Positions 1 through 11,230 of a DNA stretch of 15,599 nucleotides are shown in pieces. Position numbers and translations under genes: made by a program. Location of the stretch: contig JBFMGU010000251.1 in the NCBI GenBank assembly GCA_040752415.1, forward strand, positions 1-15,599, read 5' to 3'. The notes below the pieces were generated by a model that made no database searches, was not told the origin of the DNA, and saw nothing but the letters and a program-made list of their open reading frames with translations. Each line of letters opens with the position of its first letter. Within the stretch, counting starts at the first letter, position 1. The stretch is from Myxococcota bacterium (GTDB lineage: Bacteria > Myxococcota > JACRCW01).

Positions 1-203
1 GCCACCGCGACCGCGAGGACCAGCGCCACCGCGAGGCACGCGGCGGGGCCCGGCGCGCGCATCCCCGGCGGGCCCCCGACCACGGTCCGCGCCAGGCTCT
101 CGTCGTCCGTGCCTGGCCACTTGCCCCCGGCCGCCCAGTAGACGTGGAGCGCCGCGACCAGCGCGAGAGCCACGGCGGTCGCCAGCGCGAGCACGGCGCT
201 CAC
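1..203 (-). CDS. DUF3995-like membrane protein (partial, runs off the left edge)
   Basis: Not in the ORF track. Manual translation from GTG at 203 gives MSAVLALATAVALALVAALHVYWAAGGKWPGTDDESLARTVVGGPPGMRAPGPAACLAVALVLAVAV. The LHxYWAxGG motif after a hydrophobic helix is typical of DUF3995. The start overlaps the upstream stop (GTGA, 200-203), implying translational coupling. Confidence 0.8.
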   Translation of the reverse strand, partial: MSAVLALATAVALALVAALHVYWAAGGKWPGTDDESLARTVVGGPPGMRAPGPAACLAVALVLAVAV

Positions 204-769
204 GACGAGCCCCCTTCCGCTTCGGGCCGCCACTCCCCACCTTCGTGCCGGAGCTTCGCCGACGCGAGCCCGAAGGGCTCCGGCGTGATGCGCCGCGACG
301 CGTCCCACACCTCGAGGCGGCGCGGCTCGAAGCGGAGCAGCACAAAGTCGTCCCCCTCCGGCCCTTCGGGGAAGAAGGCCCACCACGAGCGCATGAAGTG
401 GGCGCGCCGCGCGCCGACGTCCTCCACCACCTCGACGTCGCCCGAGAGCGCCACGCACGCGCCGCGGCGGTCGTCCTCGTACACGAGGGTGGCCCGTGGA
501 TCGGCACGGAGCTCCGCGACCTTGCGCGAACGCGGGCTGGTCCCGAGCCACACCCGGAGCTCCTCGTCCGGGGGGAAGGGCTGGAGCACGCGGGCGTGTG
601 CCCCCTCCGGGCTTGTGGTGACGAGCAGGCAGTAGGGCTTCCGTTGCATGGTGGAGCGTGCCGCGGCGAGCACGGCGCGCGGGTGGGTGGAGAGATCACG
701 GGCCTGGCCGAAGCGCCGCCAGAGGAGCGCCAGCCGGCGCAGGAGGCGGTCGGGAAGTGAGGCGTCCAT
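200..769 (-). CDS. Pyridoxamine 5'-phosphate oxidase-like FMN-binding split-barrel protein (general stress protein 26-like)
   Basis: Motifs CLLVTT..GAHARVLQP, VWLGTSPRSRKVAELRADPRATLVY, WWAFFPEGP and DFVLLRFEPRRLEVW match the PNPOx/GSP26 FMN-binding family. Confidence 0.85.
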   Translation of the reverse strand: MDASLPDRLLRRLALLWRRFGQARDLSTHPRAVLAAARSTMQRKPYCLLVTTSPEGAHARVLQPFPPDEELRVWLGTSPRSRKVAELRADPRATLVYEDDRRGACVALSGDVEVVEDVGARRAHFMRSWWAFFPEGPEGDDFVLLRFEPRRLEVWDASRRITPEPFGLASAKLRHEGGEWRPEAEGGSS

Positions 770-803
770 GACCGAACCATACCGTACAGTATGGTTTGGT
801 CAA
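769..803 (-). promoter_or_regulatory. Sigma70-type promoter (TTGACC-N16-TATGGT-N6-ATG, apparently leaderless) overlapped by a 34-bp palindromic repressor operator
   Basis: The minus strand reads TTGACC AAACCATACTGTACGG TATGGT TCGGTC ATG. Plus-strand arms TGACCGAACCATAC (769-782) and GTATGGTTTGGTCA (789-802) are a 14-bp inverted repeat with one mismatch around a central GTAC. It is an AT-rich island in GC-rich DNA, and no Shine-Dalgarno precedes the ATG. Confidence 0.75.
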
Positions 804-921
804 CGGCTCGTCATCTCCCTCGCTCCGGCCCGCCAGCATCCGCGTCGACGCCACCGCGCGCAAGCGTGGACGGTCGACCGCGATGACGCACAGGTTGCGG
901 CGCGGGCGAGAGGCGCCTGCT

Positions 922-1851
922 TCAGGCCTCGTTCTTCTTGCTCAGCACCTTCTTGAGCAGGGCGCCAATGGCCAGCACGGCAACGAAGAGCAGCTTCTTG
1001 GCCTTGATGGCAACCGCGGCCAGGCCGGCGAGCAATCCCACCTTGGAGGCCACCTTGCCCGCCACCAGCGCGCCAATGCCGTAGGCCGCCACCTCGTCGA
1101 CGGAAGCGTCGAACTCCGCGTAGGTGTGTCCCTTGTTGAACTCCACCGCCTTCACCACGTCGGGCATCCGGGCCTTCACGGTTGCCAGCGCATCCATGCC
1201 TGCCACCGCCTGCATCACCAGCACGCCGCGTCGTCCCAGCGCGCGGATGTCGTAGTTCAGCGTGTGGGCGCTATCGCCGCCGAACACCAGCTCCTTGGCC
1301 CAGTGCAGCTTGCGCGTCTGCGCGTCGTAATGCGGCGGCTCCGCCCAACCCACCAGCTCCACGGTGGGATAGCCCTCGGACTTCCGCGCCTCGCTGGACT
1401 TGGCGGTGTCGGCCTTCATCTCCTTGAGGAGCTCGTCGTAGTTGATGCTGGCCGCGTCGTCGTCCTTGACGTGCCCGTCCTCCTCGTAGGTCACCACCAC
1501 GCCCCAGTTGTCGTCGTCCACCGGGCCCACGTCCGCGGGGAAGATCATGCCCAACGTCAGCTCACCGGGCGGGTTGCCCCACAGGTCCTCCAACACGTAG
1601 CGCGCGCTCTCCGGGTCCAGGTAGCGAAGGTCCTTGCCCAGTTGGAGCGTGGCCAGGCCGTTCTTGATGGTCACGTCGCCCTGCTGCCACTTCAGGCGCG
1701 CTTCCACGGATTTCTTCAATGCGGCCAGCTTCTCGTCGTCGGAGGGCTCGGCGGGAGGCTCCTCCGCCAGCGCGGGTGCCGCGGGGAGGAGCAGGAGGAG
1801 CGCAACCAACGCGCCAAGTGCTTCACGACGGGGGCTCAAGGGATTGTGCAC
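922..1851 (-). CDS. DUF2167 domain membrane-anchored protein
   Basis: Signal peptide (ALGALVALLLLLPAAPALA). Motifs WGNPP, YEEDGHVKDDDA..INYDELL, LVGWAEPPHYD...KLHWAKEL, TLNYDIRALGRRGVL and a C-terminal VAAYGIGALVAG hydrophobic tail. Start placed at GTG 1851 behind a GGAGA RBS; the ORF track extends to 1902. Confidence 0.9.
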   Translation of the reverse strand: MHNPLSPRREALGALVALLLLLPAAPALAEEPPAEPSDDEKLAALKKSVEARLKWQQGDVTIKNGLATLQLGKDLRYLDPESARYVLEDLWGNPPGELTLGMIFPADVGPVDDDNWGVVVTYEEDGHVKDDDAASINYDELLKEMKADTAKSSEARKSEGYPTVELVGWAEPPHYDAQTRKLHWAKELVFGGDSAHTLNYDIRALGRRGVLVMQAVAGMDALATVKARMPDVVKAVEFNKGHTYAEFDASVDEVAAYGIGALVAGKVASKVGLLAGLAAVAIKAKKLLFVAVLAIGALLKKVLSKKNEA

Positions 1852-1968: not shown

Positions 1969-3909
1969 TCAAGTGTCGCGCTTGCGCGGTCGCGGCAGGC
2001 CGTACTCCTCGAGCCGGTTGACCAGCGCACGCCGCGACATGCCCAGCACTTCCGCCGCGCGCGACTGGTTGCCCCCGCACGCGTTCAGCGCTTCCAGGAT
2101 GCGCTCCCGCTCCACGGCCTTCAGCGCGTCCTTCAATTGGCGCGGAGAGGCCGGAGCCTGCGGGCCCGTCGACGACGGAGGCACGGGCGCCGGGGTGGGC
2201 AGGCGGAAGGCGGGCACGGTGGGGTTGGGGATCCCGGTGCGCATGGCGCTGGGCGCGGTGGGCAGCGTGGGTGAGGTGATGATCGGCTCGAACACCGACG
2301 GACGCGGCACCCGGGGAGGCGGCGCGGGGCTCGGCGTTGGCACGGGTGTCGACGAGGAAGGGGACACCGCGGACTGCAACATCATCCCCATCTTCTCCAC
2401 CGGCAGGTGGTCGAGCGAGATGACCTCGCCAGTGCACAACGTCACCGCGCGCTCCACCACGTTGCGCAGCTCCCGCACGTTTCCGGGCCAGGCGTAGGAG
2501 CGCATGAGCTGCAGCGCCAGGGGGTCCACGGTGGGAAGGCGGGTCTTGCCCTCCGCCCGCGCGAACTGCTCGACGAACGTCCGCACCAGGCCTTCCAACT
2601 CGTCGGTGCGCTCCCGCAGCGGCGGAATGCTGAGGGTGATGCCGTTCAGGCGGTAGATGAGATCCTGGCGGAACCTGCCGTGCGCCACCATCTCCTCGAG
2701 ATTGCGGTGCGTGGCGGTGAGCACGCGCACGTCAATGGGCCGCGGCTTGACGGCGCCCACGCGCACCACCGCGCGCTCCTCCAGCACCCGCAGCAGCTTC
2801 ACCTGCAGGGCCGCGGGCATCTCGCCCACCTCGTCCAGGAAGATGGTGCCGCCGTCCGCGGTCTCCAGCAGACCGGGCTTGGCCTTCACCGCGCCGGTGA
2901 ACGCGCCCCGCTCGTGACCAAACAGCTCGCTCTCCAGCAACGCCTCGGCCAGCGCGCCGCAGTTGATGGCCACAAAAGGCTTGTCGCTCCGACGGGAGAA
3001 GCGGTGGATCATGCGCGCCGCCACCTCCTTGCCCACGCCGGTCTCGCCCTGGAGGATCACGCTGATGGTGCTCTGCGCCACCCGCTCAATCAGCGCGCGC
3101 AGCCGCTCCATGGGACTGCCGTCCGCCGCCACCGCCTGCTCCGCCGTCACCAGCGGCGTGGTCCCGCGCAGCGCCGCGCCCGCGCGGTCCATGAGCTCCG
3201 CCGCGCTCCTTCCGTCGTCGGGATGGACCGCCACGCCGGTGGCCACCGCGCCGCCCTTGAGCCGCAACTGCACCTGCTCGCACAACTGCCGCGCCGCGGC
3301 CGCGCCTGCGTCCTCGAGGAGCAGCTCGTAGTCACGCGGGCTGAAGTTGGCCACCAGGCTCGTGGCCTTGAACACCACGTCCAGGGCGGACTCCACCTGC
3401 TCGTCGGTGACCTCGGGCGGGAACCGCATGCGCACCACGGCAAAGCTGCGTCCGGTGCGTTGTGCACGCAGGCATTCCTCCTCGAGCCGCGCGTCGAAAT
3501 AACCGTGGGGCCACAACCGCCGCGGCGCGCGCGGGACCTCGGCACGTTGCACAATCACCATCACCGAGCCCAGCTCGATCACGTCGCCGGGGTTCACCTC
3601 CACGGGCTCATTGGCCGTGAGCCGCGCGCCCCGCACCCGCGTCCCATTGAGGCTGCCCAGGTCCTGCACCTGCACCCGCGGGCCCACGGTGATCATCGCG
3701 TGGCGACGGGAGAGCGAGGGCTCATCCACCTGGATGTCCGTCTCCGCGGACCGGCCAATGAGCGCGTTCCCCTCCGGGAGCACGTGGCTGAGCGGCGTAC
3801 CCTCGCCCACCACCACGAGGCGGTAGCGCGCGGTCCCCGGCGGCAGCTCCACCGCGGGCACCGGGCGTGTGGCCTCCGTGGCTTCGTCGGCGTCGTCGAA
3901 CATGGCCAT
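1969..3909 (-). CDS. Sigma54-dependent enhancer-binding protein: FHA + degenerate GGDEF-like + AAA+ + Pro-rich linker + Fis-type HTH
   Basis: FHA motifs (IGRS...SLSRRHA...DLGSLNGT); Walker [24 protein letters not shown]; Walker [55 protein letters not shown]. Start probably ATG 3909 or 3903, with a TATCCT -10-like hexamer at 3925-3920. The ORF-track extension to 4323 overlaps other features. Confidence 0.93.
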
Positions 3910-4012
3910 GACGGCCGGCAGGATAGTGGCGCGGGCGGGGGTGGCGGAATCTCCGGGGTTCCCACCGCCCGGAGGAACGAAAGTGCCAGGCCCTTCGCGG
4001 TGTTGTGCGGGC

Positions 4013-4207
4013 ATGCACGCTCGCTCTCCCCTGCCCAGCACGGCGGCCGCGCCCCACGGCGCCACCTCCCTCGTACCGCGCCACGGTGGGCCCGACCTCG
4101 CCATCCTGGTGCTCAGCGCGGTCCTGGGCAGCGGGGTGATGTTCGTGGTGGCGTGCGGCTTCTGCGGGATGTTGACGTGGTTGATGGTGGCGCTGTTGCA
4201 CCGTTGA
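4013..4207 (+). CDS. Small hypothetical membrane protein (64 aa; alternative GTG start at 3983)
   Basis: The C-terminal ~35 codons are strongly hydrophobic ([37 protein letters not shown]) and almost all end in G/C. GGAGG at 3971 lies 7 nt before the in-frame GTG 3983. A hairpin follows the stop. Confidence 0.55.
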
Positions 4208-4214
4208 GGCCACC

Positions 4215-4246
4215 AAACACGAACGGCGCCCTCTCGGACGCCGTTC
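4215..4246 (-). terminator. GC-rich hairpin, probable intrinsic terminator (possibly bidirectional)
   Basis: The minus strand reads GAACGGCGTCC-GAGA-GGGCGCCGTTC (11 bp, one G-U) followed by GTGTTT. It lies between the convergent small ORF and the structured minus-strand segment. The U-tract is weak. Confidence 0.55.
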
Positions 4247-4620
4247 TCGAAGCAACTCCTCGCCGGTTTTCCGTTCGTTCCGACTCCCGTCGTCAATCTG
4301 CGGCAAGGCTCCTCACGGAACACTCACCGTCGACCCCTCCGGGAACCATGGCAACCACACCCTTTCGGGCCACGTTGCTGGCTTCACGTCTTCCAACCGA
4401 GGAACCACTTCGGATGAACCAGGTGATCACCAACGCCCCAAGACGTCGACAACAACCCGATCCATCACGCAACGCACCTCCCTCGCAGGAAACCCGTTGC
4501 GTCGTCACCGGAGATGTCCCAGGGCGCAAGCGCCACGGGAAACATCAGGTCCGGCAACCGGGAAGACACACCCTCTCGAGCATCTCTCCCGTCGTGGCGA
4601 GCACCCTGTAGGTCCACGTC
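4215..4620 (-). ncRNA. Candidate large structured non-coding RNA, family not recognised
   Basis: No convincing ORF. On the minus strand there are consecutive stems at 4561-4590 (GAGA loop), 4504-4558 (CUUG loop), 4467-4502 (GCGA loop), 4351-4378 (GAAA loop), 4309-4320 (GUGA loop) and 4221-4246 (GAGA loop), plus a long-range helix 4445-4455/4324-4334. Many pairs are G-U and work only on the minus strand. Boundaries are approximate. Confidence 0.55.
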
Positions 4621-4732: not shown

Positions 4733-5983
4733 TCAGCCCGGAGGCGCGGGGGGCAGGCGGGGCGCGGGCTGCCGGGTCAACCGCCACAAACCCAGGATGC
4801 GACGCTGCACCTCGTCGGGAAACAAGGTGATGCGCTGCGGGAGCGCATCCAGCGGGTCGGGCACCACCGGTGCTTCCACGTCCTGGAGCGCGTACGCCCG
4901 ACGCAACGCGGCCACGTGACGCACCAGGCACTCGCGCGCGGTGCCGGTGGCGGGACGGACCTTGACGCACGCCTCGTAGTAGCGCGGGTGCAGCAGGCGC
5001 GTGTCCGCCACACCCAGCAGCTCATAGGCCTGGCCCAGCAGGTGGAAGGCCTCCTGCTGCATGCGCGTGTCCTGCGGCGTGGCATTGATGACGTCGTGGA
5101 GGAGCGTGGAGGAGCGCAACAGCTGGACCCAGGCCACGCCGGGGACGGGACCGCGCTGCTCGGCCACACGTGCGCGCTCCAGGAGGCTCTCGGCGCGGTC
5201 CAGCAACGTGCTGGCGTGATCCACGGCGCCCGCCACCGGCGGCTCGTTGCTCCACTGGAACAGGTCGCCGCGCCACGCTGTCGCCAGCTCGTGCATCACC
5301 GAGGGAGCGGAGGGGTTGGCCTGGATGGCGTCGGTGAGCTCCAGGGCCAGCTCCGGGCTGCGCAGGGACCGCACCGCCAGCGCCAGCGCCGTGCCGGAGG
5401 TCTGCTGCCACTCCACCGTCTCCCGCAAACCCAACCCCCGCGCCAGCACCACGCGGTAGCGCGCCAGGGCGTCCTGGAACCGACGCGTGGCGGCCAGCAG
5501 CGTGGCGTGCTCCAGGGGCGTGAGCGTGGGGTCGTTGGTGACGTGGGTGAGCGAGGGAAACATCACGCCCTCGTCGTTGCGGGAGTGACAGGAGATGCAG
5601 CCCTCCGCCACGTTCAGCAATGCGGCGCGCGCGTACGCGGTGTGCCCCTCGCGCAGGGCCGACTGCGCCTCGCGCGCGTCGGAGCGCAACGACTGCAGCA
5701 ACCAGTCCATGGCGGGGTCCGCCTGCGGCTTGTCCTTCCGCTCCAGGTCATGGGCCAGGTTGGCCAGCGTTTCCACGTCGTGGAGGACGCGCTCCCGGTT
5801 CCCCGGTGCGTTGAACCGCGCCGCCGAGGAGAGGTCCAGCAGCACGCGCGACAACGTGGCGGCGAGCTGTTCCATCCGGACGCGCCAGTCCTGCACGTCG
5901 GCGCTCCGGACCACCGTGGGCGCGCCCAGCGCCACCGCCAGCGCCAGCACGCTCCCCAGGATGCCCACCCGGTTGAGACGCAT
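4733..5983 (-). CDS. Exported monoheme c-type cytochrome (cytochrome c'-like helical N-domain) with TPR-like helical C-terminal region
   Basis: AGGAGG RBS before ATG 5983; signal peptide MRLNRVGILGSVLALAVALGAPTVVRS; a single CISCH heme-attachment motif (5585-5599) at the end of a ~100-aa helical region; later TPR-like segments (FQDALARYRVVL, EAFHLLGQAYELLG) and a YYEAC..ARECL Cys pair. Confidence 0.75.
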   Translation of the reverse strand: MRLNRVGILGSVLALAVALGAPTVVRSADVQDWRVRMEQLAATLSRVLLDLSSAARFNAPGNRERVLHDVETLANLAHDLERKDKPQADPAMDWLLQSLRSDAREAQSALREGHTAYARAALLNVAEGCISCHSRNDEGVMFPSLTHVTNDPTLTPLEHATLLAATRRFQDALARYRVVLARGLGLRETVEWQQTSGTALALAVRSLRSPELALELTDAIQANPSAPSVMHELATAWRGDLFQWSNEPPVAGAVDHASTLLDRAESLLERARVAEQRGPVPGVAWVQLLRSSTLLHDVINATPQDTRMQQEAFHLLGQAYELLGVADTRLLHPRYYEACVKVRPATGTARECLVRHVAALRRAYALQDVEAPVVPDPLDALPQRITLFPDEVQRRILGLWRLTRQPAPRLPPAPPG

Positions 5984-6173
5984 GGGACACCTCCTGGCGG
6001 CGTGCACAGCAACGCGCGTGCCCGCACCGACGCGGGAAACACCGCGGAAACTCGGCCTGATTTGCGCAAGCGCTGCGCTCGCCGGAGCATGATTGCGCCA
6101 CCCGCGGACCTCGTCGCTTTGCCCGATGGCAAGTGCGAACGGCGCGCGCACCCTCTTGATCCGGGGAGGCACC

Positions 6174-8414
6174 ATGGCCCGTATTTCCGCGCTGTTCTTC
6201 CTCGCGCCGCTGCTCATCTCCTCGCGCGCGTCTGCGTCGCTGGCGGAGGAGGGCGCCACTGGCGCACCGTATTTCCTGGTACCAGACGCCACGAGTTCCC
6301 TGGTGCTCGACGACGTCACGGCGCACGTGGAGATCTCCGCCCACGTGGCGCAGGTGCATCTCGTCCAGCGCTATCGGAACCCGTCCCATCGTCGCGTCGA
6401 CGCGCTGTACGTGTTTCCCGCCTCGACCCGAGCGGCCGTCCACGACATGACCATGACCGTGGGAGATCGTGTGTTGAAGGCGGAGGTCCAGGAAAGGGGT
6501 GTGGCGCGGGACACCTTCGAGAACGCGCGGCGCGCGGGTCACACGGCGTCGCTGCTGCAGCAATACCGACCCAACGTGTTCCAGATGGAGGTGGGGAACA
6601 TTCCCGCGCTCGGCACTGTGCTGGTGGAGCTGGACTACGTCGAGGAGCTGCTGTTCCACGACGACACCTACGAGTTCGTGCTCCCGGGCGTGGTGGGCCC
6701 CCGCTACGGCGGCGAGGCCTCTGGACCCTACGAGCGCGCTCTCGACGCGCCGAACCTGCCGCTCGTCCGGGCGCAGGTGCGCTTGTCCGCCGGCATGCCC
6801 ATCCGGGAGGTGCAGTCCTCCACCCATCGCATCACCGTGCGCCATGCGCAGGACGCCGACGACGTGGAATTGCTGGAGCCGGTGGGCCAGCGTGACTTCG
6901 TGTTGCGTTACCGCCTCACGCAGGATGCGCCGCGCGCCGGAGTCCTCCGTTACCAGGATGAGGACGGAGGACATCTCCTGCTCAGCGTGCAGCCACCGGA
7001 GCTGTCGTCGGAAGGCCTGGCACCGCGCGAGTATCTCTTCGTCCTCGACACCTCCGGGTCCATGGGGGGCCAGCCGGCGGAAATCGCCGAGGAGCTCATG
7101 CTCGCGCTGCTGGGCAACCTGCGGGAGGACGACTGGTTCAACGTCGTGTTCTTCGACAGCACGGTGCGGCTCTTGTCGTCGGAGAGCCTGGGCGTCACGC
7201 CGGAGTCGGTTTCCGCGGCCATGGAGCGCGTGGCCAGCGAATACGGCGGAGGTGGCACCAACGTGCTGCACGCGCTGCGCGCCGCGGTGGACCTGCCGCG
7301 TCCCAGGGTGGAGGGTCTTTCCCGCAGCCTCATCCTCGTCACCGACGGGCTTGTGACCGTGGACCGGGAAGCAGTGGAGCTCCTGCGGAGTCACCCCGGG
7401 GTGGACAACGTGTTTGCGTTCGGCGCCGGGCACCGGGTCAACCGGCATCTCATCGAGGAGCTTGGGCGGGTGGGACGGGGTGAAGCGTTCGTCGCCGCCA
7501 CGTTGCCGGATGCCCACGAGCAGGTCCGGCGTTTCCGGAACATCGTGGAGGCGCCGGTGCTCACCGACGTCCAGGTTCGTTTTGAGGGCCTGGAGGTCCA
7601 GGACGTGGATCCGGAGGTCCTGCCAGACCTGTTTGCGCATCGTCCGCTCTTCGTCACGGCGCGGTACCGCGCGGGAGCGACGGGGACGGTGGTGGTGCGT
7701 GGCCGTGCGGGCCAGCGGACCTGGGAGCAGCGGATTGCCCTCACCCGTGACGACGAGTCGAGCCACCACGGTGCCGTGAAGTACCTGTGGGCGCGGCGCC
7801 GCATTGCCGCCCTCACCGACCAGGTCAGCATCTCCAACAGCGCCGCCGCCAAGCGTGAGGCCACCGACCTGGCACAGCGCTACAACCTCGCCAGCGAGTA
7901 CACGAGCTTCGTGGCGGTGGATGACGCCGTGGTGCAACCACCCGAGGCAACGCACCCACCGCCCCACGTCCTGAAGCCGACCATCATCGACTTCAGCGGA
8001 GCCACCATCGAGGGCGAGCGGGCGCGGGCGGAGGGTTCCCATCTCGTCGATTGTCGCCGCAGCGCTTTTCGCTCGCTTGTCTCTCCACGAACGGACTTCG
8101 AGGCTGAGCTCCTGGCCAGCGCCCCCGCCGTGGTGGCGGTGGAACCTTCTCCTCCCGTGCGGCTGCGCGTCGTCTCCGTCGCGGGAGCGAGTGCTACCGA
8201 CGTGGAACGTGTGCTGCTTCCCGTCGCGGAGGCGTTGCACCGCGCGCTGGGGCGACCGCAGCGGGCCGAGCTGGAGGTCGTCCTGGATGAGAACGGTGAA
8301 GTGGCCGCGGTGCATCACCCCACCCGGGCAGACGCGCTGCGCAGGATCCTGCAGCGGGTGCGCTGGCCTCGGACGGGAAAGCACGTCGTGATTCGGGTGG
8401 AGCTGAAGCGCTGA
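6174..8414 (+). CDS. Exported VIT (vault/inter-alpha-trypsin) + VWA domain protein with a CglF-like insert and a TonB-C-like C-terminus
   Basis: GGAGG RBS before ATG 6174; signal peptide; VIT motifs (VQRYRNP..DALYVFP...[13 protein letters not shown]...[17 protein letters not shown]); VWA with intact MIDAS ([18 protein letters not shown]); LWARRRI..L and [12 protein letters not shown], typical of this family. Confidence 0.9.
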
Positions 8415-9143: not shown

Positions 9144-10082
9144 TCACCGCGTGCTCTCGAAGACGAACGGGTAGGTGACCACCACCACGCCACCGCCCAG
9201 AGGCTCGGGGAACTGGAGCTGTCGCAGCGTCTGCAGCACGCACTCGCGCGTCTCCTCGCTGGGCAGGGAGCTCTCCTCGGCCACGGTCTCCGCCTCGCGC
9301 ACGCCCCCCGTGGCCACGACGACGAAGTTGGTGGCCAGCTTTCCGGCGAGCGCGGGTTGCAGCAGCAGGCGCACCTCGAAGCACCGCTTCACCTCGTCCA
9401 GCGCCGCGGCAATGACCTCCCGGATCTGCGCCTTGGACAACCCACCGCGGACCTCCACCTCCGCGGTCGTCTCGAGGACATCCGGCACCGGCGCATCCGG
9501 CTCCCACGCCACCGCCGTCCCGCCGCGCGTGATGTTGGACCACGTCCCGGTGCGTTTCCCCAGCGCGTAGGCGCCCTCGGACTCCCGGTTCCCGTCGGGA
9601 TAGAACGTGCGCCACGCTCCGTCGCGCAGGCCCGCCAGGTAGCTGCCGCGCGCCTTCACCGCGCCGTTGGGATGCCAGTAGGTCCACGCGCCTTCCTTGC
9701 GGCCGCCCAGGTACGCGCCCTCCGACTCGCGCCCACCGTCGGGATACCAGGTTCCCCACGCACCCTCCCGAGCGCCCTGCACGTAGGGCCCCCGCGCGCG
9801 CTGGTGTCCGTCGGGATACCACTCGGTCCATTCCCCCACCGGCAGGCCCGCCAGCAGGTTGCCCTGCAGCCAACGCGGGTCGGCGCGCGTGCCGTGCCAC
9901 ACCGTCATGCGCTGCATGGCGGGCTGCGCCTGGTCCTGCGCGGACACGAACTCGTGCGCCCACTTCCAGTCCGCCTGGGCGCGGGACGACGCCGGACGGG
10001 CCGCGCCGCGACACGCCAGCAGCGGGACCACCAGCAGGACTGCCAGCACCACCGGCCGCCGGGCTGCCATCACGCGGGACAT
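9144..10082 (-). CDS. Putative lipoprotein with MORN-variant (YwqK-like) repeats and an AgmX/PglI (TonB-C-like) C-terminal domain
   Basis: Signal with lipobox (AARRPVVLAVLLVVPLLA-C); four ~24-aa GxWxxWYPDG..xxGxY repeats; C-terminal GGLSKAQIREVI...VKRCFE...PALAGKL...ECV...FPEPLGGGVVVVTYPFVF. The start may instead be 10073 or 10070. Confidence 0.85.
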   Translation of the reverse strand: MSRVMAARRPVVLAVLLVVPLLACRGAARPASSRAQADWKWAHEFVSAQDQAQPAMQRMTVWHGTRADPRWLQGNLLAGLPVGEWTEWYPDGHQRARGPYVQGAREGAWGTWYPDGGRESEGAYLGGRKEGAWTYWHPNGAVKARGSYLAGLRDGAWRTFYPDGNRESEGAYALGKRTGTWSNITRGGTAVAWEPDAPVPDVLETTAEVEVRGGLSKAQIREVIAAALDEVKRCFEVRLLLQPALAGKLATNFVVVATGGVREAETVAEESSLPSEETRECVLQTLRQLQFPEPLGGGVVVVTYPFVFESTR

Positions 10083-10259
10083 GCTAGCAGCAGCCGGGAC
10101 GTCGCCTGCGCGGCGTGACGGTGACGACGGAGCCTGCGGTGGTCCCCCGTCGTGGCTACGCTCTTCCCGCAACCGCGCCCGGGGACGACAGGGTTGCGCG
10201 CAATTTCCCCGCCCCAGCACTTTCTGCGCGCCGGACCGCCACGGCAGGCAGCTTTCGCG

Positions 10260-10275
10260 TGGCACCGGTCTTGCG
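10260..10275 (+). promoter_or_regulatory. Sigma54 (-24/-12) promoter
   Basis: TGGCAC-CGGTC-TTGC-G matches the TGGCAC-N5-TTGC consensus exactly, 16 nt before ATG 10292. A TTGCGCGCAA palindrome at 10194-10203 is a candidate upstream activator site. Confidence 0.8.
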
Positions 10276-10291
10276 CTGGCGAGCCGGAACC

Positions 10292-11230
10292 ATGAGCTGT
10301 CCGCGCCACACGCTCGCACGTCTGCCCTGGCTGGTGGGGCTGGTCCTCGCCGCGTTCCTCGTCGGGGAGCGGCCGGCGCGCGCCTCCGCGTGTTGCGGGA
10401 GCTCCTACGGGTTGGGCTCGCGGCTGGCGCCGGCGGAGACGGGAACGGTGACGCTGCTTTTGCGGGGCGCCGCGCCGTACGCCAGCTGGTCGCGCACCAC
10501 CGAGGTCAAGCCGAGCAGCGTGCTGACCCAGGAGCTGCGGCTGGACGTGGGCGGCATCATCCGCGCCACCGAGCACCTGCAGCTGGGTGCCAGCGCGCCC
10601 CTCGTCGTCACGCGACGCGCGGGGCCCAAGGGAAGCAGCGTGGGTGGTGGGCTGGGGGATGCCACCCTGTTCGCCCGCTACGACGTCATCCCCGTGGGCG
10701 GACAAGCGGGTCTGCCCGGGGTGGGCCTGGTGCTGGGCGCCACCATCCCCAGCGGCCGCGCCGGGCGTGACGCCACCGACGTGCTCGGCGCCGACGCCAC
10801 CGGGCAGGGACTGTGGGAGCTGCGTCCCGGCGTGATGTTGGAGCGCGTGTGGCTCAACGGCTTCTTCGCCGTGCTGGGCGCGTCGCTGGCGTTGCGGGCG
10901 CCGGTCACCGAGGGGGGACAGCGCGTGGTCATGAAGCCGCGGTTGCAGCTGGTGGCCGCCGCCGGGCCCACGTTGGCGCGCAAGGTGTCGCTGGCCCTGG
11001 GCGTCATCCACGAGCAGGAGCCCGGCCCGGAGATCAACGGCGTGGTGGCCCCCCTGTCCGAGCGGATGAAGACCTCGCTGCTCGCGGTGTCGTCGGTGGA
11101 GCTGGGCCCGCACTGGTCGCTCATCTTCACCGCGCAGGCGGAGCCGCCGCTGCGCGCTTTCGGTCGCAATGAGGACGTGGGCTTCGCGGTGGCCGCGGGG
11201 CTGCGGCACGTCTGGCTGGAGTTTGAATGA
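10292..11230 (+). CDS. Putative outer-membrane beta-barrel 'transporter' (MetA-pathway/SphA-like) with an N-terminal Cys-Cys motif
   Basis: Signal peptide ending ARA-SACCG; GGLGDATLFARY, GLVLGATIPSG and TGQGLW motifs typical of this barrel family; alternating amphipathic strands; ends in GLRHVWLEFE. Confidence 0.7.
   Translation: MSCPRHTLARLPWLVGLVLAAFLVGERPARASACCGSSYGLGSRLAPAETGTVTLLLRGAAPYASWSRTTEVKPSSVLTQELRLDVGGIIRATEHLQLGASAPLVVTRRAGPKGSSVGGGLGDATLFARYDVIPVGGQAGLPGVGLVLGATIPSGRAGRDATDVLGADATGQGLWELRPGVMLERVWLNGFFAVLGASLALRAPVTEGGQRVVMKPRLQLVAAAGPTLARKVSLALGVIHEQEPGPEINGVVAPLSERMKTSLLAVSSVELGPHWSLIFTAQAEPPLRAFGRNEDVGFAVAAGLRHVWLEFE

Follow-up and report, generated by a model that had tools for sequence, protein, structure and literature searches.

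Why does an exported protein built of a VIT domain and a VWA (von Willebrand factor A) domain carry, close to its C-terminus, a stretch that resembles the small gliding protein GltF (CglF)? The question is raised by contig JBFMGU010000251.1 of the Myxococcota assembly GCA_040752415.1, which we analysed over its entire length of 15,599 nucleotides (hereafter the window; C170 in our numbering); the host genome comprises 11 Mb in 520 contigs, with a completeness of 96.8% and a contamination of 4.3%. A preliminary description of the window, made from the letters alone, had noticed that the end of the VIT-VWA core is followed by a Pro-rich stretch and by a segment that runs without gaps along the mature GltF pattern. 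It had proposed that this segment docks a protein with a metal ion-dependent adhesion site (MIDAS) onto an outer-membrane gliding platform. The observation was confirmed, and its interpretation is partly supported.

In Myxococcus xanthus, GltF/CglF is a protein of 89 amino acids (aa) with a signal peptide, and it is required for gliding and located at focal adhesions (PMC3169522). In the window, positions 7974-8123 of the forward strand encode, letter for letter, the 50 residues quoted in the preliminary description, after ...EYTSFVAVD and the Pro-rich stretch. They are residues 601-650 of a protein of 746 aa, which leaves 96 residues on the C-terminal side. The NCBIfam model of the gliding protein (gliding_CglF, NF033764) matched the 50-mer with an E-value (E) of 1.8e-5 (24.6 bits, model positions 36-84 of 88); the full 746-aa protein gave E 3.2e-4 (20.7 bits). 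In a six-frame search of the host's own genome with the same model, the module ranked fifth of seven matches (E 1.6e-4, 24.9 bits). A profile match to the family therefore exists, at scores (20.7-24.9 bits) far under the curated equivalog cut-off of 90 bits. An independent profile was made from 22 stand-alone GltF-like sequences, the 746-aa protein and all fused forms being excluded; it matched the module over positions 1-50 of 50 with 48.2 bits and E 2.8e-12 among the 98,897 six-frame open reading frames (ORFs) of the genome. The module aligns gaplessly with the stand-alone copies (48% identity to the paralog on C374 in the same genome, 52% to the best stand-alone copy) and retains the T-I-I-D-F-S...I-E-G-E start and the F..L...R.dF..EL..S end of the motif. 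Judged by its sequence, the module is a genuine homolog of the mature GltF/CglF peptide that has diverged, and the gapless likeness noticed earlier is homology.

The segment had been treated as the last element of the protein, which does not hold: a C-terminal domain (CTD) starts 15 residues later, and the VIT-VWA family commonly has such a tail. The final ~85 residues of the 746-aa protein align with the C-terminal domains of 20 homologs, a biased set that had been picked for high coverage or a TonB_C label. Among these chosen homologs the models matched were tonB_Cterm (11/20), myxo_SS_tail, which is the AgmX/PglI domain (10/20), and the GltG model NF033760 (10/20, best E 5e-58). A profile of the 20 homolog tails, made with the 746-aa protein left out, reached 37.9 bits on the CTD (E 6.8e-9 genome-wide). 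AlphaFold 2 (AF2) predicted a beta-alpha-beta-beta-alpha-beta fold for it, with a per-residue confidence (pLDDT) of 83-94 when the alignment had 27 rows and of 90-97 when it had 43. A helix was predicted at the end of the module, at fragment residues 67-77 in the model with the deeper alignment (10-residue blocks at pLDDT 86 and 71) and at 67-73 in the shallower one. On the sequence evidence we take the CTD as a degenerate domain, probably of the TonB/GltG type, with which the structure matches weighed below are consistent without being decisive. In the host and its relatives gltF is followed by gltG, and the tail of the 746-aa protein repeats the order of these neighbouring genes within a single chain, the product of gltF coming first and the C-terminal part of that of gltG next.

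The arrangement is shared by other proteins. A search with the whole protein gave 1222 proteins at E<=1e-20 among the 8000 scored, and the best non-self matches were 43-45% identical over ~75-79% of the query, that is, over the VIT-VWA core. Among the 120 matches listed, many of them of about 790 aa, nine had a precomputed TonB_C domain (PF03544), two were named 'AgmX/PglI C-terminal domain-containing protein' or 'TonB family protein', and the motif was present only in P0090 (836 aa; NF033764 E 1.3e-10). When the motif search was limited to proteins above 152 aa, five matches were obtained, P0124 (885 aa), the 746-aa protein, P0090, P0125 and a 184-aa protein; four of the five are VWA proteins and the fifth, of 184 aa, is a stand-alone copy whose called start is long. 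An exhaustive search of representatives listed 150 proteins through a 197-position profile that included the CTD. Since two full-length rows had brought the CTD into this profile, most of the 150 rows are domain-only matches, and 149 of them were re-scored for the motif. It was found in 68, of which 63 do not exceed 160 aa, in agreement with the 89 aa and signal peptide of the M. xanthus protein (PMC3169522) and with the earlier statement that GltF is normally small, stand-alone and exported. The five longer ones (P0131, P0134, P0141, P0179 and P0246) are all VIT and/or VWA proteins, P0134 being labelled partial by its source.

This makes seven further fusions (P0090, P0124, P0131, P0134, P0141, P0179 and P0246), all with VIT and/or VWA domains and all with the motif followed by the CTD; the stand-alone-only profile matched them with E 1.5e-22 to 1.2e-5. 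They come from metagenomes or metagenome-assembled genomes, and none is named after CglF. The distance between motif and CTD goes from 15 residues in the 746-aa protein up to 105 residues across the eight fusions. P0124 is the clearest case, in which a canonical GltF motif precedes a tail like the periplasmic Gly-rich region of GltG plus its CTD (compared with the GltG ORF of locus L009). The motif of the 746-aa protein scored 47 bits, against 64-80 bits for P0124, P0131, P0134 and P0141. The 746-aa protein is the most degenerate of the eight fusions and a lineage-specific member; a search with its C-terminal 172 aa against proteins of 410-1306 aa returned only itself. The fusion noticed in the preliminary description is real, and no description of a VIT-VWA/GltF-module fusion was found in the accessible parts of the literature on GltF/CglF and on VIT, VWA or TonB-type proteins of myxobacteria.

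Some candidates were set aside. The 'long ORF' matches obtained in relatives were rejected as fusions, since they are gltE-gltF-gltG clusters in which the reading had passed through stop codons. The three further matches at E<=1e-9 in the sampled genomes of the phylum cover no more than the motif, in frames that are small or interrupted by stops.

P0125 (C500:5729-7702, minus strand, locus L023) is of another kind. It is a YfbK-type VWA protein of the host genome, and close to its N-terminus stands the strand half of the GltF motif (KKTVIEFSDKSIDGDLRKPDGEYLE; E 1e-8). The protein looks like a lipoprotein (LAGC) and contains vWF_A, VWA and YfbK_C domains, a VWA family unrelated to the VIT-VWA one. 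YfbK-type proteins with a similar N-terminal motif were seen in at least one other genome of the phylum, the matches being in G212 (E 2e-7), in G286 (E 2e-3) and, weakly, in G124 (E 3e-2).

We then looked at the history of the fused forms in trees of the core from which the tail had been removed. With FastTree (59 of 118 non-fused homologs used), the eight fused rows required three changes, a value that none of 500 shuffles reached. A quick IQ-TREE run with 40 non-fused homologs, in which P0134 and P0246 had been dropped as long branches, gave four changes for six fused rows, as low as in 10 of 500 shuffles, and a single clade of fused forms was not rejected (p-AU 0.35). FastTree pairs the 746-aa protein with P0124 and P0141 (support 85); IQ-TREE places it instead with the non-fused P0028. 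In these trees the fused forms are clustered more than in the shuffles, which is compatible with one origin or with repeated ones.

The preliminary description would have lost its ground in a host devoid of glt genes. The genome holds two gltF-gltG-cglE clusters, and this objection therefore does not apply. On C349, CglF (104.5 bits, above its cut-off) is followed by GltG (551 bits, positions 1-649 of 650) and then by CglE (75 bits for a cut-off of 70); the set on C374 is a second, weaker one. Across the phylum the motif profile matched in 364 of 401 sampled genomes, a tally that includes G195, a genome flagged unpublished that was used for this count alone.

GltF-like genes were also seen outside these clusters. 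A third and more distant stand-alone gene (C138:4076-4729, plus strand, locus L022; 36-38 bits with NF033764) lies directly after sctV, the type III secretion export-gate gene (832 bits), and outside any glt cluster. On C158, a short ORF that weakly resembles GltF (62-343, plus strand; E 2.5e-4 with the stand-alone profile) is directly followed by a gene for a 485-aa GltG-like protein (347-1801, plus strand), which has an AgmX/PglI domain as well as a Gly-rich region; this pair, too, stands apart from the main clusters. Pairs of gltF-like genes in tandem, a canonical one beside a diverged one, occur in loci L072, L073, L074 and L078 (genome contigs) and L135 (metagenome), all matched through the GltG-type tail of P0124.

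What could such a tail do? The fusion of the products of neighbouring genes in one chain is a classic sign of interacting partners. Here a GltF-like peptide and a GltG-type domain are fused in gene order, and we therefore read the tail as a docking unit. We give about even chances to the proposal that the module and the CTD form a periplasmic docking tail modelled on the GltF-GltG contact, which would tie the MIDAS head to a Glt-like scaffold. The strand-type half of the module would pair with the sheet of a GltG-type CTD, most simply with its own CTD 15 residues away, or with another one. The helix-type half would pack on that CTD or into the groove of a GltC-like protein with tetratricopeptide repeats (TPR). 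Either way, the metal-binding VIT-VWA head would be tethered to a Glt-like envelope scaffold. We infer the contacts of the module and the CTD, their periplasmic compartment and the link to gliding. The template is an AlphaFold model in which the beta-strand of GltF runs parallel to a strand of the TonB-type CTD of GltG, and in which the C-terminal helix of GltF occupies a crevice of GltC, a TPR protein, and GltD is also contacted, GltC, GltD and GltG being periplasmic (PMC11761067). The 147-residue numbering of GltF in that paper, compared with the 89-aa protein, would correspond to an N-terminal extension. If this shift holds, the modelled strand is the first ~18 residues of our module and the modelled helix its last 11.

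A number of results weigh against this proposal. The GltF-GltG contact is itself an AlphaFold prediction, and biochemical evidence for the periplasmic complex is lacking according to its authors (PMC11761067). In both AF2 models the module's strand half has a pLDDT of 51-60, and thus no confident docking in cis is predicted; it is only the helix whose confidence rises, to 86, when the alignment is deeper. In stand-alone GltF the helix is a free C-terminus, the copies stopping 1-5 residues past the motif, whereas in the 746-aa protein 96 residues come after it. Three of the eight columns that are at least 90% conserved in a 30-row alignment (A5) are altered in the module (L to R, P to A and Y to H), all within the central EGELxKPEGSY stretch, the columns kept being D, G, L, R and F. 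The CTD is not matched by Pfam or NCBIfam models, including PF03544, TIGR01352 and NF033768. Its best Foldseek rows, TonB and FusB C-terminal domains with 2gsk_B among them, are weak (E 0.11-0.7), and VIA-align gave Z 5.5 with TolA and Z 4.4 with TonB, under the tool's own caution line. The gene is not beside glt genes, its neighbours in the window coding for a heme-motif protein, a LOG-family protein and a MORN/CTD protein.

The distribution of the fusion is another point of this kind. Neither in a set of 41 nor in one of 401 sampled genomes of the phylum did any genome but the host's own combine motif and CTD, which leaves 400 others without such an ortholog, and scans with P0124 gave no further fusion in 66 genome loci and 61 metagenome loci, although these scans did not recover the contig of P0124 itself. 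The best VIT-VWA homologs of the three nearest genomes (one of the same family and two of the same class, 45-46% identity) do not have the motif, as judged by eye; they have Gly-rich linkers and canonical CTDs. The paralog P0015 of the same genome (C57:27594-29963, plus strand) has no motif by profile and carries a Gly-rich linker and a Cys-bearing AgmX/PglI domain. The absence of the segment from orthologs, which the preliminary description had seen as damaging to its claim, is thus true of these three homologs and of the paralog, but seven distant VIT/VWA proteins carry the segment.

Part of this evidence would also be explained if the tail were a decaying relic, in which an ancestral working GltF-like module and a GltG-type tail, as in P0124 and P0141, are both drifting, and the segment is now a mere linker. 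The altered near-invariant positions (3/8) and the low motif score (47 bits versus 64-80) fit such a history, as do the loss of both Cys of the CTD, to which the library models are blind, and the position of the core on a long end branch (1.05, compared with a median of 0.32-0.37). The failure to find an ortholog, both with the 172-aa tail and in the 400 other phylum genomes, goes in the same direction. But the frame is intact over 746 codons, and the strand half has retained its hydrophobic pattern and the helix half is kept entire, with no indel relative to the stand-alone copies. The independent profile recognizes the module at E 2.8e-12, and the CTD is predicted to fold at pLDDT 90-97. Joint divergence of the module and the CTD would equally be expected of a pair co-adapting in cis. 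We consider decay unlikely on balance, while keeping it as a serious competitor of the docking tail.

We find it clearly harder to accept that the segment docks the MIDAS protein in trans onto an outer-membrane Glt/Nfs platform (GltA/B/H), as an alternative adhesin or cargo, as had been suggested in the preliminary description. The modelled partners of GltF are the periplasmic GltC, GltD and GltG and not the barrels (PMC11761067), and the 746-aa protein has no lipobox or other signal for surface export. It is not among the four matches of the genome to the CglB profile (NF033757) at E<=1e-10, and its gene is outside the glt clusters. Its own CTD, 15 residues off, is a nearer partner, and the central part of the motif is degenerate. 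This docking can nevertheless invoke the two gltF-gltG-cglE clusters of the host, the VWA nature of CglB, the adhesin of the Glt machinery (PMC9946355), and the joining of GltF-like motifs to two different VWA families. An artefact, whether a match due to chance or composition or an assembly, chimeric or frame-shifted, in which cglF became fused to a VIT-VWA gene, could be suspected from the 520 contigs, the 4.3% contamination and the NCBIfam score far under its cut-off, and is hardly credible. The match reaches E 2.8e-12 with an independent profile, no remnant of a signal peptide lies between core and motif, the order core-motif-CTD recurs in seven independent proteins from other sources, and the GC content is uniform (0.67-0.75) across the window.

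How do the parts of the 746-aa protein compare with known systems? With GltF/CglF (MXAN_4868, NF033764) it shares the 50 residues that match the mature part gaplessly. The difference is in the setting: GltF, of ~90 aa, stands alone, brings its own signal peptide and ends in the motif, and its gene lies between gltE and gltG, whereas in the 746-aa protein the motif is internal, lacks a separate signal peptide and is encoded outside a glt cluster. The VIT-VWA proteins with a TonB_C or AgmX/PglI tail form an unnamed family, the members of which are called 'VIT domain-containing', 'AgmX/PglI C-terminal domain-containing', 'TonB family' or 'Ca-activated chloride channel family' by their sources. 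The 746-aa protein resembles them in its VIT domain, its VWA domain with a MIDAS, the ...TSFVAVD end of the core, the core identity of 37-46% and the small CTD of predicted beta-alpha-beta-beta-alpha-beta fold. In most members, core and tail are separated by nothing but a Pro- or Gly-rich linker; in contrast, the 746-aa protein has the GltF-like module inserted there and ends in a very short tail, degenerate and free of Cys.

The tails of the VIT-VWA family match the C-terminal region of GltG (PglI; NF033760, NF033768), and the tail of the 746-aa protein is homologous to those tails. Unlike GltG, the 746-aa protein has no transmembrane helix and no FHA domain, and Pfam and NCBIfam gave no match in it to FHA or any other N-terminal part of GltG. 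It thus cannot couple to the AglRQS motor in the way proposed for GltG. More generally, force transducers of the TonB, TolA and GltG type have an N-terminal transmembrane helix that couples to a motor of the ExbB, TolQ or AglR type, whereas the 746-aa protein has only a signal-like segment. The TonB box binds the C-terminal domain of TonB by strand addition, as in BtuB:TonB (2gsk). The proposed principle would be the same here, a short strand joining a TonB-type sheet, except that the partner peptide would belong to the same chain. CglB (NF033757) is likewise a VWA/MIDAS protein of a gliding myxobacterium, but of another VWA family; the 746-aa protein has a VIT domain and no lipoprotein signal. 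In the membrane-tethered vWA 'force transducers' described in 2025, the TonB C-terminal domain is replaced by a YfbK-like vWA, carried on a TolA/TonB-like transmembrane helix and a linker (PMC12204202). The combination of a vWA with a TolA/TonB-type envelope logic is common to both, but the 746-aa protein is a soluble VIT-VWA head with a putative TonB-type domain at its end. GltF and VIT-VWA proteins with a TonB-type tail are known kinds, and the 746-aa protein is a variant that combines them.

A wider reading can be put forward tentatively, and we believe in it less than in the docking tail itself. The GltF-like peptide and the GltG-type CTD may be a portable plug-and-socket pair that myxobacteria have repeatedly tied to MIDAS proteins, at the C-terminus of VIT-VWA proteins and at the N-terminus of YfbK-type VWA lipoproteins, so that metal-dependent binding heads would ride on, or compete for, a periplasmic transducer of the Glt/Nfs type. 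If this were true, the fusions would be Rosetta-stone evidence for the GltF-GltG contact. The fusion family is in itself independent support, at the level of sequence, for the modelled contact, and its members are ready-made test constructs, P0124 and P0141 being better suited than the degenerate 746-aa copy. The fusions also connect VWA/MIDAS proteins beyond CglB and CglD to docking elements of the gliding type, and could indicate new passengers or regulators. Taken alone, the window has modest stakes, as a single diverged gene of an uncultured genome.

The features of the locus are given in the table below.

Table. Coordinates of the VIT-VWA gene, its domains and a neighbouring CTD gene in the window
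Feature	Position	Strand	Evidence and remarks
Gene of the 746-aa exported VIT-VWA protein with GltF-like module and putative TonB/GltG-type CTD	6174..8414	+	Stop codon included; ORF, Pfam, NCBIfam
Probable Sec signal peptide, without lipobox	6174..6236	+	By-eye reading
VIT domain	6309..6638	+	PF08487, E 1.7e-31, 109 bits
VWA domain, MIDAS pattern intact	7035..7499	+	PF13768, PF13519, PF00092
Pro-rich linker after the core end FVAVD	7923..7973	+	Stands where homologs have 'VKQPLPLPxGVS'; sequence, alignments
GltF/CglF-like module, N-terminal strand-type half and C-terminal helix-type half	7974..8123	+	Translation, profiles, gapless alignments
Predicted helix at the module end, fragment residues 67-77	8097..8129	+	AF2
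Linker between module and CTD, 15 residues	8124..8168	+	Profile coordinates; shortest among the 8 fused proteins, others 35-105
Putative TonB/GltG-type CTD, degenerate, no Cys pair	8169..8405	+	Homolog tails, AF2
Neighbour: lipoprotein-like MORN-repeat protein with AgmX/PglI (GltG-type) CTD	9144..10319 (CTD 9156-9440)	-	NF033768 79.4 bits (cut-off 40), MORN_2

The ORF itself extends from 6093 to 8414 on the plus strand, and the ATG at 6174, with GGAGG 6-7 nucleotides upstream, is its likely start; the identical entry P0003 of the protein collection, also of 746 aa, agrees with this choice. The sole 19-residue window with a Kyte-Doolittle hydrophobicity above 1.5 is the N-terminal signal-like segment, in which there is no Cys. 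The MIDAS begins with DTSGS at residue 292, and D292, S294, S296, T362 and D391 are invariant in a 20-row alignment of homologs (A1). The region upstream of the gene yielded no sigma-54 promoter beyond chance expectation.

The CTD of the MORN-repeat protein matched the GltG profile at positions 540-647 (E 4.7e-25), and its gene lies 0.7 kb downstream of the VIT-VWA gene on the opposite strand. As there are 28 AgmX/PglI-type domains in the 11 Mb of the genome, such closeness is unlikely by chance, at about 1% by a rough estimate that concerns a single post hoc observation. Speculatively, the MORN-repeat protein might be a partner of the module in trans. A similar pairing of CTD genes was not seen beside the loci of VIT-VWA homologs elsewhere. 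Six loci with two CTD-bearing ORFs were rejected as paired VIT-VWA loci, being gltG-type clusters matched through the tail only.

Other genes of the window deserve mention. A divergent ORF of 528 aa (4733-6319, minus strand), whose called 5' end overlaps the start region of the VIT-VWA gene, has no Pfam family but contains one CxxCH motif of the heme-binding type, with weak matches to cytochromes c551 and c550 (E 3e-3 and 6e-3). An exact -24/-12 element of the sigma-54 type (TGGCAC-N5-TTGC) is present at 10260-10274 of the plus strand, within the 5' part of ORF 10115-11230, which has no family match and a plausible internal start just after the element; near matches to the element number 21 in the window for 20.7 expected, which is not above chance. 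The window also carries, at 1969-4323 on the minus strand, a gene for a sigma-54 activator with an FHA domain.

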